NCBI RefSeq assembly: GCF_988243305.1
Contig: NZ_OZ547136.1
DNA length: 64,000 nt
Reading direction: 5' to 3' (one strand)
This document shows positions 21,303-27,572 of this stretch, piece after piece; position 1 is the stretch's first letter, and each line of letters starts with the position of its first letter. A model generated the notes under the pieces. The model was given only the letters and a program-made list of their open reading frames with translations, was not told the origin of the DNA and searched no databases. Position numbers and translations under genes: made by a program.

Positions 21303-22349
21303 ATGATAGAAATGAAAAATAACACACCATTTCCTTTGTTGTCATTTGAAAAATATGGTCGTTATGGTCTTTTGTTTGATGTTATTGCTATTAAAATGTC
21401 ATTGCGAATTAAAAATGGATTTTATGCTGATCTTGCTGAGTTTCAAAAAGAATTGTCCATGTCTGATGAATACTATGGGGAGTCTGAAACAAGTAGTCTA
21501 AAATCTGAAACAGACTTAGTTCTTTGTAAAAGAAATACAGATATTCACGTGACAGGTAGTGCTCATGCCCCTCCAGGGGATAAGTCTAAGTGGAAGGCTT
21601 GTGTGAGGGTTAATAGTTTTTCTAAAGAACTGAGTTTATCTGGTGTCCGCTACTTACAATATGAGCGAAATCGTTGGCAGATGAGCTTACCAGATAAAAT
21701 TATTAATGTTCCTCTACGCTATGAGCTTGCTTACGGTGGTATTTGGCAACCAGATGGTATGGAGAAATTGGTTTTTTCAGCAAACCCTGTAGGTTGTGGA
21801 TATTATCCTGATATTTCTCAACTTAATACAAGTTGTCAATATAAACTCCCACAAATAACCAGCTCTGCTTTGTCAGAAAACGCTACCATTTTTAATGGGG
21901 AATCTGACTTTTTTCAAGGTGTTGGCCCTGTATCTCGATGGTGGAAAAGTCGCCTCCAGTATGCAGGAACCTACAATGAAGTATGGCGTGAAAAGCGCTA
22001 TCCCTATTTGCCGGATGATTTTGATGAGCGGTTCTACAATAGTGCTCATCCGGATATGATATACACGGGGTTTCTCTCTGGCGATGAAAACATCTCTCTT
22101 GAAGGTTTTTTTAAATTTGAACAGGTTGTTAAGACAAAATTGCCAGGTATACGACCTGTACTTATATTAAAAACCAAGCATAATACATCACATATGTTCT
22201 TACCTGTTGCGGATACAATGGTTATCGATTTAAGTCGACAGGAAATATACCTTACCTGGAGATTAACAATACCTGATTTTTTTGGAATGAAAGAAGGAGT
22301 GCTGAGTTGTATTATTCCTGAATGTATAGGGAAAAAATATTATGGGTAA
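21303..22349 (+). CDS. T6SS adaptor-like protein (DUF2169-type suspected from context and size)
   Basis: 348-aa AT-rich ORF immediately downstream of vgrG; 8-nt overlap with the following PAAR-like gene; the family call rests on genomic context, not on a motif I can verify. Confidence 0.45.
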   Translation: MIEMKNNTPFPLLSFEKYGRYGLLFDVIAIKMSLRIKNGFYADLAEFQKELSMSDEYYGESETSSLKSETDLVLCKRNTDIHVTGSAHAPPGDKSKWKACVRVNSFSKELSLSGVRYLQYERNRWQMSLPDKIINVPLRYELAYGGIWQPDGMEKLVFSANPVGCGYYPDISQLNTSCQYKLPQITSSALSENATIFNGESDFFQGVGPVSRWWKSRLQYAGTYNEVWREKRYPYLPDDFDERFYNSAHPDMIYTGFLSGDENISLEGFFKFEQVVKTKLPGIRPVLILKTKHNTSHMFLPVADTMVIDLSRQEIYLTWRLTIPDFFGMKEGVLSCIIPECIGKKYYG

Positions 22350-23382
22350 CTATCATATCGGGGATGGTGAATGTAGATTTAGAGTCGTGTGTTCTTCACC
22401 AGATGTATGTGAAGTAGGAGGTTACAAGGTTCCTTTTGACAGTTACCAGACTTTAGATAGTGAAAGACAGTACAGTTCAACGGTATGGGCGCGTGGATGC
22501 AGAGCTTTAAATGTTGGTTCAGTGATTGCTGGAACTCAAAGTAATGCCGGTAAAGGTGTCATATCCGGTACATCTCAAGGAACGGGTGACTGTGTTATTT
22601 TAACGGGAAGTCCGACTGTAACAATAGAAGGGAAACCTGTTGCTTATCATGGTTCAGTTGTTGGGATTAATAACCATAACTGCCTTGGTAAATTGTATAC
22701 CAAAATAAAATCACCAATGATTTCTGTCATTGATAAAACTTTTAGTTATGAAAGGACTGCTGAAGTAATACACGATTTACTGCTTCTGAAGGATCTCCTT
22801 TCTGTTGGGAATATTTTGGGCGGAGATATTTCACCTGAGGTTAAAAATGATTTATTTCAAATAAAAGATCCTGACCAATCATGGGGGGAGTTTTTTTCAA
22901 TAAAGAATATCAGAGAATCTCTCAGGAATGGTATTGAAGGAGATAAATCTCAGATCAGAGAATGGTTTGGAGAGAACACACTTACTCAAATGGGCAATGG
23001 AGCAATCACCACTTTACATGGTGTGGCGGATTTAGCCTTAGTTACATTCGATGCTCTGTTAGATACGGCAACGGCAACGGTTGCTTGCCCGATAGGCGAA
23101 GATGGGTTATGTGAACAGGCAAATATAAATTTAAATGAAAAAGAACAGGCTTTATTTAATATTAGTAATTCATTGATAAATGGGCAAGCATGGGATGCAC
23201 TTAAAAAAATGATAATGGATACAAATAATGGTGATCAGATTGCTCTGGAGCATTTTGCCAGCTTTTTATGGGGCTTTATGATACCCGCAAAAATACCAGA
23301 AGAAAATATCTCTGGGAAAGTATTTGTAGAGCCAGTAGTTTTAGAAGGTGGTGCTGGTGGCAATTGGACAGTATTTGATTAG
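22342..23382 (+). CDS. PAAR-like (DUF4150-type) T6SS spike-tip protein with C-terminal extension
   Basis: N-terminus CRFRVVCSSPDVCEVGGYKVPFDSY...GDCVILTGSPTVTIEGKPVAYHGSVV resembles PAAR-like DUF4150 domains; 346 aa; ends at a TAG that is in frame with the next ORF. Confidence 0.65.
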   Translation: MGNYHIGDGECRFRVVCSSPDVCEVGGYKVPFDSYQTLDSERQYSSTVWARGCRALNVGSVIAGTQSNAGKGVISGTSQGTGDCVILTGSPTVTIEGKPVAYHGSVVGINNHNCLGKLYTKIKSPMISVIDKTFSYERTAEVIHDLLLLKDLLSVGNILGGDISPEVKNDLFQIKDPDQSWGEFFSIKNIRESLRNGIEGDKSQIREWFGENTLTQMGNGAITTLHGVADLALVTFDALLDTATATVACPIGEDGLCEQANINLNEKEQALFNISNSLINGQAWDALKKMIMDTNNGDQIALEHFASFLWGFMIPAKIPEENISGKVFVEPVVLEGGAGGNWTVFD

Positions 23383-23409
23383 GTTTTAGATTCAAATGTA
23401 ATAAAGCAA

Positions 23410-23781
23410 TTGACTTTAACAGGCTGTGGAGCGGCCTGTGGGGAAATGTTGCTTAGGGATAGGTATATTTTTGTCACGCAAAATGTAATTGGAACAGAAT
23501 TAACATCTATGACGTCGCTGGCAAACAAGCTTAATAAATTTGATGTCGGCTGGGAAGGGAATGAAGTGAGCGAATCTAGTTTATATGCCCTCAGTAATAC
23601 TGGTTCATGGGGAGCAATGATGTGGGATTCTGGAAGTAAAGTAGGGCATTGGGTACTTGTTAAGGGTGTTGATGATGCTGGGAATGTGATAATATATGAT
23701 CCATATCAAGGGAGTCGATATCTGATGACTGAACAGGAATTTAAGGAGGTATGGAATGGGCATAGTGTTTACAAACCATAA
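23410..23781 (+). CDS. Papain-fold (C39-like) cysteine peptidase domain, candidate toxin domain; possibly the 3' part of a disrupted PAAR-toxin fusion
   Basis: Candidate catalytic motifs CGAACGEM (Cys), GHWVLVKG (His), IIYDPYQG (Asp); same reading frame as 22342..23382 with only one TAG between them; ORF-track start is a TTG. Confidence 0.5.
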   Translation: MTLTGCGAACGEMLLRDRYIFVTQNVIGTELTSMTSLANKLNKFDVGWEGNEVSESSLYALSNTGSWGAMMWDSGSKVGHWVLVKGVDDAGNVIIYDPYQGSRYLMTEQEFKEVWNGHSVYKP

Positions 23782-24046
23782 TATTGATTTGTTATCGGTT
23801 GAATTTGATGAGATTACAAAAAATTGTAATTACACTTTTAGTGTAGATGGAGAGACGGCTATCTTTACTGCTAGAATATCAATAATAAGAAATATAAAGG
23901 GAATTAAATATAGCGAAGAACTTGATAAATTTATAATGTCAATAATGCCATTGCAGCCTAAAGTATCAAAAATTTTGGGAGGTGTTACTTGGGATTGTAT
24001 TTGTGGTAAGGAAGTTGGATTTCCTGTGAGATTAATTGGTAAGTGA
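23756..24046 (+). CDS. Small protein, candidate cognate immunity protein
   Basis: 96-aa ORF whose ATG overlaps the last 26 nt of the peptidase-domain ORF; no signal peptide; AT-rich. Confidence 0.35.
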   Translation: MGIVFTNHNIDLLSVEFDEITKNCNYTFSVDGETAIFTARISIIRNIKGIKYSEELDKFIMSIMPLQPKVSKILGGVTWDCICGKEVGFPVRLIGK

Positions 24047-24303: not shown

Positions 24304-25250
24304 ATGGAACTTAAAAAATTGATGGAACATATTTCTGTTATCCCCGATTACAGGCAAGCCTGGAAAGTGGAACATAAATTGCCAGATATTCTATCTGTTA
24401 ACTATTTGCGCCGTTATTTCTGGTGCATAAGGCTGGGAAGATATAGAGGATTTGGGGAAACACATCTCGATTTTTTGAAGTGATATGGTGATTTTGAAAA
24501 TGGTATTCCTGTTCACGATATCATTGCCAGAGTTGTATCCTGTATCAGTCCTGCAAAATTTTACGAGTGCTTTATTAACTGGATGCGTGACTGTCATTCT
24601 TCAGATGATAAAGACATCATCGCAATTGATGGAAAAACGCTCCGGCACTCTTATGATAAAAGTCGTCAAAAGGGAGCAATTTATGTCATTAAAATCCGTC
24701 TTCATATTGTTTGCATGTCTCTGATGAATTTATTGATTTTACGTTTGAATGGAAAGGGCTGAAGAAATTATGCATGGCAGTCTCATTTCGCTCAATAATA
24801 GCAGAACAAAAGAAAAATCCCGAAATGACGGTCAGATATTATAGCATTTCTGCTGATTTAACCGCAGAGAAGTTCGCCACAGCGAACCGAAATCACTGGC
24901 AAGTGGAGAATAAATTGCACTGGCATCTGGACGTGGTAATGAATAAAGACGACTTCAAAATAAGAAGAGGAAATGCAGCAGAATTATTTTCAGGGATACG
25001 GAAGATCGCTATTAATATTTTAACGAAAGATAAGATAATCAAGGCAGGGGCAAGATGTAAGATGTGAAAAGCAGCTGCGGACAGAGACTACCTCGCGTCA
25101 GTCCTTGCGGGGGCGGGCTTTCGTAATCTTGTTCTGCAAGGGATGATAAAAAGTGCAACTTTATTCCACGCAGCTATTTAGACAGCGTACAGTAAACAAA
25201 CGAAAGTTGTTATTTCAATGGTCAGGGCAAGAGCATGAAGTGTTTACTAC
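24304..25250 (+). mobile_element. Degenerate ISAs1-family (H-repeat) element with disrupted transposase
   Basis: N-terminus [26 protein letters not shown]... and C-terminal fragment ...[27 protein letters not shown]...[17 protein letters not shown]... match the ISAs1/H-repeat transposase from memory; frameshifts and an internal deletion are evident; right boundary approximate. Confidence 0.7.
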
Positions 25251-25295
25251 ACACTATGCTCTTGTCCTGGAGTCAGGTCTTGTCTGGAGGGATAA

Positions 25296-25799
25296 ATGGT
25301 AGATATTGTCGAGGCCGATAAAACGGATATTTATTTCATTCAGGAGAGTGTTTATGGCAAAATCGGGTTGCCAGCTTTGGGTAATACAATAGGACCATCC
25401 GCACAGCAAGTTGTTAAAAAGGTATTCGCTGTCGTTAAAGAACGAGATAAGACACATGCAAAACAGAGATTATTGTTGGAATATAATGGTAACAAACTCT
25501 GGATGAATGCTATTGATGGCAGTGAAGCTATCCTACCAACAGAATTTTCTAAGCGGTACGAACTTTCATTATTCAATACTACTAATTTTGGAGAAGATCC
25601 TTTTCCTGATGTTAATTTATATAATAATATGAAATCAAGTTTTTTTGTAAGGTTTGGTGGAACATCCCATCCCGAGGCTTGGGCTATTTATAATGCAAGT
25701 ACGAAAGAGGTTAAATATATAGAAACTGCAAGAGAAATTGATAAAATATTCAGTGATTTTAACTTGAGTGGTACATTGCCAATTCACATTGGTCAATGA
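25296..25799 (+). CDS. Hypothetical protein (cassette gene 1, unknown function)
   Basis: 167-aa ORF with GGAGGG ribosome-binding site 5-6 nt upstream of the ATG; no signal peptide; AT-rich; flanked by ISAs1 remnants. Confidence 0.4.
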   Translation: MVDIVEADKTDIYFIQESVYGKIGLPALGNTIGPSAQQVVKKVFAVVKERDKTHAKQRLLLEYNGNKLWMNAIDGSEAILPTEFSKRYELSLFNTTNFGEDPFPDVNLYNNMKSSFFVRFGGTSHPEAWAIYNASTKEVKYIETAREIDKIFSDFNLSGTLPIHIGQ

Positions 25800-25864
25800 T
25801 TTTTAAATTGTGTGATTAAATAATTGAACATTAATGATGATTTATAGCATCATTATTCTATAAC

Positions 25865-26377
25865 ATGAATAAACGGATTGAATGTGTTATGTTAAAAATG
25901 AGTTTATACGTAATAATATTGTTATTTTCCTTTCAGATTAGTGCAGCCATTACTAGCAAGGAAAGTGAGGTTGTTTCACCATTATTAATGGATGTTAATT
26001 CTTCACTAACAATGGAAAATATATCTGAATTATCCACATCATCGGAACCATCGCAACAGGGGGTATTTCCTGTAATATGTACTCGACTTCATCCTGGCTC
26101 CGTAATGAAACGCCAGTTATTAACCGGCTGGGGGCCTGTTTTTATAATTGGTGATGATCCTTTTTCTCTGCGCTGGATGAGTGAACATCTGGAGATCCTT
26201 AAATCGCTAAATGCCCTTGGTTTGGTTGTTAATGTTGAATCAGTAGAACGAATGGAGGTATTACAGCAGCGGGCTGATGGGTTATTGTTATTGCCAGTTA
26301 TCTGCGATAATTTCGTGCAAACTCTGCAATTAAATGCTTATCCGGTATTAATCACAGAGATGGAAATATCACAATGA
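25865..26377 (+). CDS. Hypothetical exported protein (cassette gene 2, unknown function)
   Basis: 170-aa ORF; signal-peptide-like segment MSLYVIILLFSFQISAAI; true start may be an internal ATG at 25889 or 25898. Confidence 0.4.
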   Translation: MNKRIECVMLKMSLYVIILLFSFQISAAITSKESEVVSPLLMDVNSSLTMENISELSTSSEPSQQGVFPVICTRLHPGSVMKRQLLTGWGPVFIIGDDPFSLRWMSEHLEILKSLNALGLVVNVESVERMEVLQQRADGLLLLPVICDNFVQTLQLNAYPVLITEMEISQ

Positions 26378-26409
26378 TTAATAACATAATTACTGCAAAT
26401 AATATCGTA

Positions 26410-26612
26410 ATTTTGAAAATGGTAATCCTGTTCACGACACCATAATTAGAGTTATGTCTTGTATCCGTTCAGTATAATTTCACGAATGCTTTATTAACTG
26501 GATGCGAGATTGCCATTCATCAAATGATAAAGACGTCATCGCAATTGATGGAAAAGCGCTTCCACACTCCTATGATAAAAGTGGTCGCAGGAGAGCGGGC
26601 TTTCGTAGTCAT
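26410..26612 (+). mobile_element. Second, shorter ISAs1 (H-repeat) transposase remnant
   Basis: About 180 bp at roughly 85% identity to 24491-24672 (encodes ...FENGNPVHDT...[29 protein letters not shown]...), joined directly to H-repeat 3'-end-like sequence (GGGCTTTCGTA). Confidence 0.6.
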
Positions 26613-26648: not shown

Positions 26649-27419
26649 TCACCACAACCTAAACTCATCCGCATCCCGCCATGCCGGAAACTTTTCTCTA
26701 TACTCCCGCAACGCCATCATCGACAGCTCCGCATCAATGCGCGTTGCCTGATGCGCGTCGGCAGTAGCGATAATCTCGCCTTGCGGATTAATCACCCGGC
26801 TGTCACCACGATAATGGCAGCCGTTGCCATCGCTGCCGACGCGATTGCATCCCGCCACATACGCCTGATTCTCAATCGCGCGGGCTGTCAGCAATGCCTG
26901 CCAGTGCAGAGAGCGCGGAGCAGGCCAGTTGGCGACGTACAGGGCGAGGTCATAATCGTTGAGATTGCGCGACCACACCGGAAAACGTAAGTCGTAGCAC
27001 ACCAGCGGCAAAATACGCCAGCCGCGCCATTCCACAATCACTCGCGCATTGCCCGCTTTATAATGTAGATGCTCATCTGCCATGCGGAACAGATGACGCT
27101 TATCATAAAAATGTACCGTGCCGCCCGGCTCAACCAGCAAAAAGCGGTTAACCGAACCAGACTCCGTTTGTAATGCAACACTGCCTGCAATCAGCGCATT
27201 GCACTGCTGCGCTTTGGCTGTCATCCAGTTCACTACGTCATCTTGTGCTAGCGACGAAGCTGCCGCTTCCATGGCAAAGCCGCTGGTAAACATCTCCGGT
27301 AGAACGATCACATCGCGTCCGGTAATACCTTCCAGTTGACGATCAAAATGACGCAGGTTGGCAGGACCATCCATCCACACCAGTGGTTGCTGCAAAAGCG
27401 TAATCTTCAAACCAGGCAC
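26649..27419 (-). CDS. yafV: Omega-amidase (nitrilase-family C-N hydrolase) YafV
   Basis: Protein matches E. coli YafV as recalled; ORF track start 27428; probable start 9 nt downstream. Confidence 0.85.
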
Positions 27420-27572
27420 GGTGTACAACTCCTTTATGCGAAGGGTTTTATAACTTTAACACCTTATCAGGCAGTTGCCTTAGCGCAGAATAAATTGATA
27501 ACAAATGCTGATATTGGAAATATCTGATTTGCAAATTATCGTGTTATCGCCAGGCTTTAGGAGGTTAATAAC

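Follow-up and report, generated by a model that had tools for sequence, protein, structure and literature searches.

Small effectors of the T6SS that are carried by Hcp and act in the periplasm, e.g., those of the Tse1/Tsi1, Tae4/Tai4, and Tlde1/Tldi1 types, are accompanied by periplasmic immunity proteins. Another small T6SS cargo effector, Ssp6 of Serratia marcescens, has been described to form cation-selective pores, and its cognate immunity protein, Sip6, is a small membrane protein (PMC6889166). Moreover, orphan effector–immunity pairs encoded at a distance from T6SS genes are common, with Ssp6 representing one example (PMC6889166).

In this study, two adjacent small genes, referred to as gene 1 and gene 2, were analyzed within a DNA stretch of 64,000 nucleotides (the window). 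Public annotations describe gene 1 only as a 'hypothetical protein' and gene 2 only as an 'integrating conjugative element protein'. The earlier note on this DNA, which was made from the sequence alone, had considered them as a possible orphan effector/immunity pair or, equally, as containing an unrelated hitchhiker. Based on the comparisons described below, it appears probable (roughly 0.6) that gene 1 encodes an envelope-acting cargo effector of the T6SS and gene 2 an immunity protein derived from an integrating conjugative element (ICE); each of the three rival explanations discussed here was judged to be less likely.

Layout of the cassette and its site

The cassette is located at the tail of the E. 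coli aspV/T6SS-1 island, between two ISAs1 remnants and adjoining yafV. Upstream of the cassette, Hcp, VgrG, DUF4123, two hypothetical proteins of 539 and 289 aa, and PAAR are encoded in this order. A second module comprises VgrG, DUF2169, a PAAR-like protein, a protein featuring a C39-like peptidase domain, and a 96-aa hypothetical protein. Beyond this module, the ISAs1 pseudogene, gene 1, gene 2, the ISAs1 fragment, yafV, ivy, and fadE follow one another. The features of the cassette region, in window positions, are listed below:

24304–25067, plus strand: upstream ISAs1-family transposase pseudogene (H-repeat remnant), as deduced from PGAP on an identical genome and from blastn against the intact ISAs1 in loci L015 (E. 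whittamii) and L003 (a variant E. coli allele)
25223–25269, no strand: imperfect 21-nt inverted repeat, loop of 5 nt, following the ISAs1 end and preceding gene 1
25286–25291, plus strand: Shine–Dalgarno sequence GGAGGG, 4 nt before the gene 1 ATG, read directly from the sequence
25296–25799, plus strand: gene 1, ATG ORF of 167 aa, candidate T6SS cargo effector
25889–26377, plus strand: gene 2, 162 aa from the ATG at 25889, candidate periplasmic immunity protein
26397–26597, plus strand: downstream ISAs1 internal fragment of 200 nt, abutting yafV
26649–27428, minus strand: yafV, beyond the downstream ISAs1 fragment

The description of gene 1 given in the earlier note, namely a 167-aa protein of cytoplasmic type preceded by a strong GGAGGG ribosome-binding site, was confirmed with respect to the ORF and the GGAGGG sequence, and no hydrophobic segment was found in the encoded protein. 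Likewise, the predicted size of gene 2 (160–170 aa) and its signal peptide agree with the 162 (or 170) aa and the single N-terminal hydrophobic segment observed here. The ORF of gene 2 opens at 25865 (alternative start, 170 aa); the ATG at 25889 (MLKMSLY...) was favored over this start, based on PGAP on a 100% identical genome and on the N-termini of homologues. Depending on the start chosen, the two genes are separated by 89 or 65 bp in the window, as compared to 27–38 bp in other alleles. The GGAGGG sequence upstream of gene 1 is kept in the L015 and L003 alleles. The 21-nt palindrome at 25223–25269 was detected only in the window and in the E. whittamii allele, and no function was assigned to it, since it is absent from L003 and from L005, a locus of another enterobacterium. 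Scans of the cassette for sigma-70 promoters and terminators yielded scores not above chance, and the Rfam search of the cassette region returned no RNA family match.

A 20-nt stretch of gene 1 (25588–25607) is 85% identical to a stretch of gene 2 (26148–26167), encoding G-E-D-P-F-P in the former and G-D-D-P-F-S in the latter. Since either motif is a conserved feature of the family to which its gene belongs, this likeness is probably due to chance.

As had been assumed in the earlier note, the cassette comprises two real genes, featuring intact ORFs, being subject to purifying selection, and being carried in many E. coli genomes. Pairwise comparison of four alleles, the proteins of which diverge by up to 42–51%, resulted in dN/dS values of 0.16–0.30 for gene 1 and 0.26–0.50 for gene 2; both genes are under purifying selection and do not represent chance ORFs. 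The antisense ORFs within gene 1 were attributed to its AT-richness, and the dN/dS values back the plus-strand frame. The cassette was found in 758 out of 5426 complete E. coli genomes (approximately one in seven); in 541 of these carriers, the match extends over 80% or more of a 1401-base query that encompasses the cassette, and in the other 217 over less than 80%. The GC content amounts to 35% for gene 1 and 38% for gene 2, compared to 52% for the window, which indicates that the cassette is foreign DNA acquired horizontally. A plasmid search for the cassette revealed no genuine plasmid copy.

Regarding the ISAs1 frame, the upstream sequence extends to about 25131 and, compared to the intact copy of E. 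whittamii, lacks about 312 bp owing to an internal deletion at 24691/24692. The downstream fragment (26397–26597) represents a direct repeat of 24478–24677 with 82% identity. In E. coli K-12, the region corresponding to window positions ~25126–26589 is missing, and the yafF pseudogene of this strain corresponds to the 3'-terminal part of the upstream ISAs1, which there directly adjoins yafV. A K-12 homologue of gene 1 or gene 2 was not found at this locus, tblastn giving chance matches only.

It had also been left open in the earlier note whether gene 2 corresponds to a small K-12 gene of this neighborhood. The synteny and sequence check against ykfM and yafU was negative: although these genes occupy the same intergenic slot between the aspV island and yafV, they are encoded on the opposite strand and specify hydrophobic polytopic membrane proteins unrelated to either cassette gene (BLASTP E above 4 for gene 2). 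Since the cassette is, in addition, missing from K-12, the identity of gene 2 with ykfM/yafU was ruled out. The K-12 region itself (L002, 2758–3585) harbors the 159-aa ykfM and the 112-aa yafU pseudogene, both small and very hydrophobic, in the slot left of window position ~24848, where other strains carry T6SS effector/immunity cargo. These K-12 genes may be orphan immunity-type remnants of the lost island.

The effector module located upstream of the cassette (22342–24046, plus strand) looks split. A 346-aa PAAR-like protein (22342–23382) is followed by a separate ORF of 123 aa (23410–23781, PGAP start at about 23445), which features a C39/papain-like peptidase domain with weak NCBIfam matches to the C39 type. 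The subsequent 96-aa ORF (23756–24046) overlaps this peptidase-domain ORF and could be its immunity gene.

The DUF2859 family of gene 2 and the alleles of the pair

In the earlier note, neither gene could be placed in a family. This holds for gene 1, which matched no Pfam or NCBIfam model, but not for gene 2. The gene 2 protein scored 120.6 bits against TIGR03765 of NCBIfam (cut-off 59.75 bits), covering model positions 1–105 of 105, and matched Pfam PF11072 (DUF2859) with an E-value of 2.4e-28. Judged by these profile matches, gene 2 is a clear PFL_4695/DUF2859 protein. Its architecture consists of a predicted Sec-type signal peptide, with the hydrophobic segment at residues 4–22 followed by a cleavage-type motif (ISA↓A), a variable Ser/Thr-rich linker, and the C-terminal DUF2859/TIGR03765 domain. 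The protein aligns end to end with ICE copies from Citrobacter and Salmonella, with identities of 45% overall and 55–60% in the domain. A search for a solved structure of the DUF2859 family found none, and the literature search retrieved no functional study of DUF2859/TIGR03765 and none treating DUF2859 as an immunity protein.

In the ICEs of Citrobacter, Salmonella, and Xenorhabdus, the DUF2859 gene is located between an SLT-like gene and the gene for the TraD coupling protein. The neighbors of gene 2 in the window are gene 1, the ISAs1 fragments, and yafV; other ICE genes were not found nearby, neither the SLT-like gene nor TraD. With no sign of an ICE, the label 'conjugative element protein' represents an annotation trap at this locus.

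The pair was also recovered from further loci. In E. whittamii, it is present at 95% identity, whereas the variant E. coli allele (L003) shares 68%/75% identity and resides at the same yafV site with different upstream genes. In the non-E. coli enterobacterium (L005/L006), the pair was found at 58%/49% identity, without ISAs1, and in the order Hcp–VgrG–DUF4123–effector–immunity–PAAR–gene 1–gene 2. This order, with the pair directly following PAAR, looks ancestral; in the window, the second VgrG module and ISAs1 were apparently inserted between PAAR and the pair. The bracketing by ISAs1, to which the earlier note had attached some meaning, thus turned out to be incidental.

The L003 (4931–7576) and L015 (658–4139) loci share a conserved block upstream of the pair. 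It encodes a protein of ~330 aa, a TIGR02270-like protein of 411–414 aa (scoring 87 bits, short of the cut-off), and a thioredoxin-like protein, cytoplasmic and 137–139 aa long, that carries a CxxC motif. An ICE origin was considered for the thioredoxin-like gene of L003 and was dismissed, as no similarity was found.

A neighbor-joining tree was calculated for 62 full-length homologues of gene 2 with 100 bootstraps. The T6SS-linked DUF2859 proteins, i.e., those of the window, of the variant E. coli allele, and of the T6SS island in the other enterobacterium, formed one clade (98/100 bootstraps) beside the enterobacterial ICE copies. This single clade points to one capture event rather than to repeated ICE decay.

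Among the matches listed, ten genomes align only from 25843 onward, i.e., with gene 2 and the ISAs1 fragment. They agree in coverage, score, identity (97.0%), and the truncated annotation of the CDS; one of them, E. coli D10 (L027), was read base by base. In D10, the locus contains neither gene 1 nor the T6SS genes, IS2 is located upstream of the remnant, and gene 2 is a pseudogene harboring a 1-bp deletion (frameshift) and two TGG-to-TAG changes. As indicated by this decay, gene 2 is retained only where gene 1 is present. The 66-aa CDS annotated by PGAP in this region (7467–9655 of L027) as 'PFL_4695 family integrating conjugative element protein' is an artefact of the pseudogene.

These observations bear on the explanation that gene 2 is debris of a decayed ICE and gene 1 an unrelated orphan ORF moved by ISAs1 rearrangements, the two having no joint function. 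Gene 2 belongs unambiguously to an ICE protein family, and the cassette is both AT-rich and bracketed by ISAs1 fragments, which speaks in favor of this explanation. However, no further ICE gene accompanies it, the two genes still occur together, at 58%/49% identity, where ISAs1 is lacking, and purifying selection acts on both of them. In addition, the T6SS-linked DUF2859 proteins constitute a well-supported clade of their own, and gene 2 decays once gene 1 has been lost, as seen in D10. This explanation was therefore regarded as very improbable. Similarly, the hitchhiker alternative of the earlier note is disfavored, since gene 1 and gene 2 have remained neighbors in three alleles of divergent sequence and context.

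The gene 1 family and its genomic contexts

The gene 1 protein possesses neither a signal peptide nor a cysteine residue, and searches against Pfam, NCBIfam, PADLOC, PHROGs, and a PDB sequence profile revealed no match. A word-indexed search retrieved Escherichia proteins only, whereas scanning 1.84 billion representatives exhaustively with HMMER yielded 36 relatives, typically about 190 aa in length; a profile scan of genome contigs using a narrower alignment recovered eight loci. Family members range from 165 to 195 aa in size and originate from Enterobacterales (Escherichia, Citrobacter, Cedecea, Pantoea, Morganella, Yersinia, and Erwinia), Burkholderiaceae, and a few other proteobacterial genera. 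They share the motifs Y-x-I-x-E, GNT(I/V)GPS, G-x-DP-x-P-x-x-x-LY, and GG-x-x-x-P-x-A, and an internal stretch of about 30 residues is missing from the members of the Escherichia clade. In gene 1, the conserved positions correspond to Y13, E17, the GNTIGPS loop (29–35), G99-x-D101-P102, L108-Y109, G121-G122, and P126, with E17 and D101 being the only conserved acidic residues.

Structure prediction by AlphaFold2 resulted in a pLDDT of 39.5 when based on three sequences; a confident model (pLDDT 87.6, pTM 0.82) was obtained only from an alignment of 23 sequences. The predicted fold is mostly beta, with three long antiparallel strands, further strands, and one C-terminal helix. Foldseek comparison of this model with AFDB50 returned only members of the same family, all labeled 'uncharacterized', from Cedecea, Citrobacter koseri, Pantoea, Morganella, Siccibacter, Enterobacter, and Yersinia as well as from Burkholderia, Trinickia, Marinobacterium, and Halopseudomonas. 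Accordingly, the fold searches provided no structural relative outside the family, and no catalytic motif was recognized by the family and fold searches. The literature search retrieved no description of the family, and the recent large T6SS effector surveys consulted mention neither it nor DUF2859. As judged from these searches, gene 1 belongs to an undescribed and unnamed protein family.

Two further assignments of gene 1 were tried and rejected. A divergent Hcp (PF05638), suggested by a relative in the slot usually occupied by hcp after tssBC, received an hhalign probability of 0.1%, and a diverged SLT-like lytic transglycosylase of ICEs, considered because such a gene normally precedes that of DUF2859, reached only a BLAST E-value of 8.2 and an hhalign probability of 0.06%.

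Linkage to T6SS genes (hcp, vgrG, PAAR, or core tss genes) was found in the window and in L005, L012, L013, and L024. The gene 1 relative lies 16 bp after an orphan hcp in L012, directly after tssB–tssC in L013, and between tssL and tssF in the Paraburkholderia locus L024; in L025, a relative was located 2.5 kb from a Tai4 immunity gene. No T6SS gene was present within about 8 kb of the relatives in Morganella (L009/L018), L014, and Erwinia (L017), and isolated two-gene cassettes occur in Morganella, Erwinia, and others.

In every gene 1 relative examined, a gene for a small protein with a predicted envelope location is tightly linked or overlapping. In L009, L013, L014, L024, and L025, this partner comprises 145–165 aa with about four (3–4) predicted transmembrane segments and is encoded co-directionally, overlapping the gene 1 relative or within 30 bp of it. 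In L012, L016, and L017, the partner is a convergently encoded membrane protein of 92–104 aa. DUF2859 was encountered as the partner in the Escherichia/L005 clade only.

In two unrelated loci (L014, 7021–7380, and L025, 8222–8632), a DUF805 membrane protein is encoded after the transmembrane partner; it may be a third conserved component of gene 1 cassettes.

In the metagenomic T6SS cluster of L013 (6001–11062), ten genes without a Pfam match, among them the gene 1 relative, occupy the space between tssC and tagJ, which is the usual hcp slot, and no Hcp was recognizable in the stretch seen. The same locus encodes a 126-aa protein that, by eye, resembles an effector of the cysteine-amidase type, followed by an exported protein of 183 aa.

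The placement of relatives inside core clusters, both after tssBC and between tssL and tssF, together with the lack of a recognizable toxin domain, would also fit a non-toxic T6SS accessory function of gene 1 (as a chaperone, adaptor, or tube/spike factor), the envelope protein then representing a separate accessory component. However, gene 1 matched neither Hcp nor the adaptor families DUF4123, DUF1795, and DUF2169, and adaptors adjoin large effectors rather than small membrane proteins. Furthermore, the partner type varies, as is the case for immunity genes, and stand-alone two-gene copies far from T6SS genes are better explained by effector–immunity pairs. An accessory role hence seems rather improbable.

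The relatives of L009/L018, L014, and L017, isolated copies among housekeeping genes without visible T6SS genes nearby, are instead in line with a T6SS-independent module of a cytoplasmic protein and a membrane or periplasmic partner, being toxin–antitoxin-like or involved in abortive infection or envelope stress. Such a module would gather in variable islands, including those of the T6SS, only because these are hotspots for accessory genes. Layouts combining a cytosolic and a membrane protein in two genes are typical of defense systems. On the other hand, no PADLOC or PHROG match was obtained, and the positions after hcp, tssC, and PAAR and inside tssL–tssF in four unrelated loci are hard to explain by chance. 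Distance from T6SS genes is, moreover, commonly observed for effector–immunity pairs such as Ssp6 (PMC6889166), and we regard the T6SS-independent explanation as unlikely.

Taken together, the repeated placement next to hcp, PAAR, and core tss genes, the constant presence of a linked envelope gene, and the variation of this partner between clades argue for an effector–immunity pair. The pairing of a soluble, signal-less protein with a neighbor located in the envelope is the standard hallmark of effectors that act on the envelope and of their immunity proteins. The comparative context (after PAAR, hcp, and tssBC and between tssL and tssF) thereby lends support to the proposal of the earlier note that an orphan effector/immunity pair resides at the tail of the T6SS effector island.

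In the effector–immunity reading, gene 1 would encode a small soluble cargo effector without a signal peptide which, at 167 aa, is small enough to travel inside the Hcp tube. Its size and the hcp-adjacent relative suggest Hcp as the likely carrier. The protein would be fired into neighboring Gram-negative cells, with the periplasm or the periplasmic side of the inner membrane as its proposed site of action. The gene 2 protein would be exported by Sec into the periplasm of the producer, where it would neutralize incoming or self-delivered gene 1 protein. The ancestors of gene 2 presumably served in the conjugation modules of ICEs; one lineage would have been captured once, the DUF2859 protein replacing the protein with approximately four transmembrane segments that partners gene 1 relatives elsewhere.

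Several observations weaken the effector reading. Three gene 1 relatives (L009/L018, L014, and L017) have no T6SS gene nearby, and the kind of partner differs by clade (polytopic or soluble periplasmic DUF2859), which is unusual for a single toxin mechanism. No catalytic motif or fold relative suggests a mechanism, and the decay of gene 2 after the loss of gene 1, as read in one genome, differs from the classic pattern of a retained orphan immunity gene. In addition, the promoter scan did not exceed chance, and the gap between gene 1 and gene 2 is longer here than in other alleles.

A more tentative extension, which is possible but less likely than not, is that gene 1 founds a new T6SS toxin family with a fold unlike any solved or annotated structure and that DUF2859 is a periplasmic neutralizer domain, one lineage of which was co-opted for immunity, taking over from an earlier immunity protein of about four transmembrane segments. 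In that case, the cassette would reveal a new toxin mechanism and, at the same time, offer the first functional handle on DUF2859. The ICE copies of DUF2859 would then shield the donor envelope from a periplasmic activity encoded by the element itself, e.g., that of the SLT-like transglycosylase, or, alternatively, would act in exclusion.

Comparison with described systems

If gene 1 is indeed a T6SS toxin, it would represent a new effector family distributed across Enterobacterales, Burkholderiaceae, and a few other proteobacterial genera, with a fold and mechanism outside every current model. The pair would, if this reading is true, constitute a clear case of an immunity function recruited from a gene of a conjugative element. 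It would also lead to a testable hypothesis on DUF2859, which is widely conserved among ICEs.

Among the described systems, Ssp6/Sip6 appears to be the nearest functional analogue of gene 1 and gene 2. Like the gene 1 family, Ssp6 homologues occur mostly in Enterobacterales, as stand-alone pairs, beside orphan hcp genes, or within T6SS clusters, with the gene for a small membrane protein directly following downstream. However, they comprise about 210–231 aa, as opposed to 167 aa for gene 1 and about 190 aa for its relatives. Ssp6 is, according to its published description, predicted to be largely alpha-helical, whereas the gene 1 model is mostly beta-strand, so that gene 1 has neither the size (about 210–230 aa) nor the mainly alpha-helical composition of Ssp6-like proteins. 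Sip6, in turn, is a protein with two transmembrane helices, whereas gene 2 is predicted to encode a soluble periplasmic DUF2859 protein.

The Tse1, Tae4, and Tlde1 types resemble the cassette in combining a small signal-less effector with an immunity protein carrying a Sec signal at the end of an hcp/vgrG/PAAR island. Unlike these effectors, gene 1 features no cysteine, no NlpC/P60, amidase, YkuD, or lysozyme signature, and no Pfam or fold match.

With the PFL_4695 proteins of ICEs, which belong to GI-type conjugation modules, gene 2 shares the signal peptide and the C-terminal domain, its score reaching twice the curated cut-off. It differs from them in following a T6SS-linked gene, in belonging to a separate clade, and in residing outside a conjugation module. 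Compared to the described systems, gene 2 hence represents a known family in a new context, and gene 1 an undescribed family.
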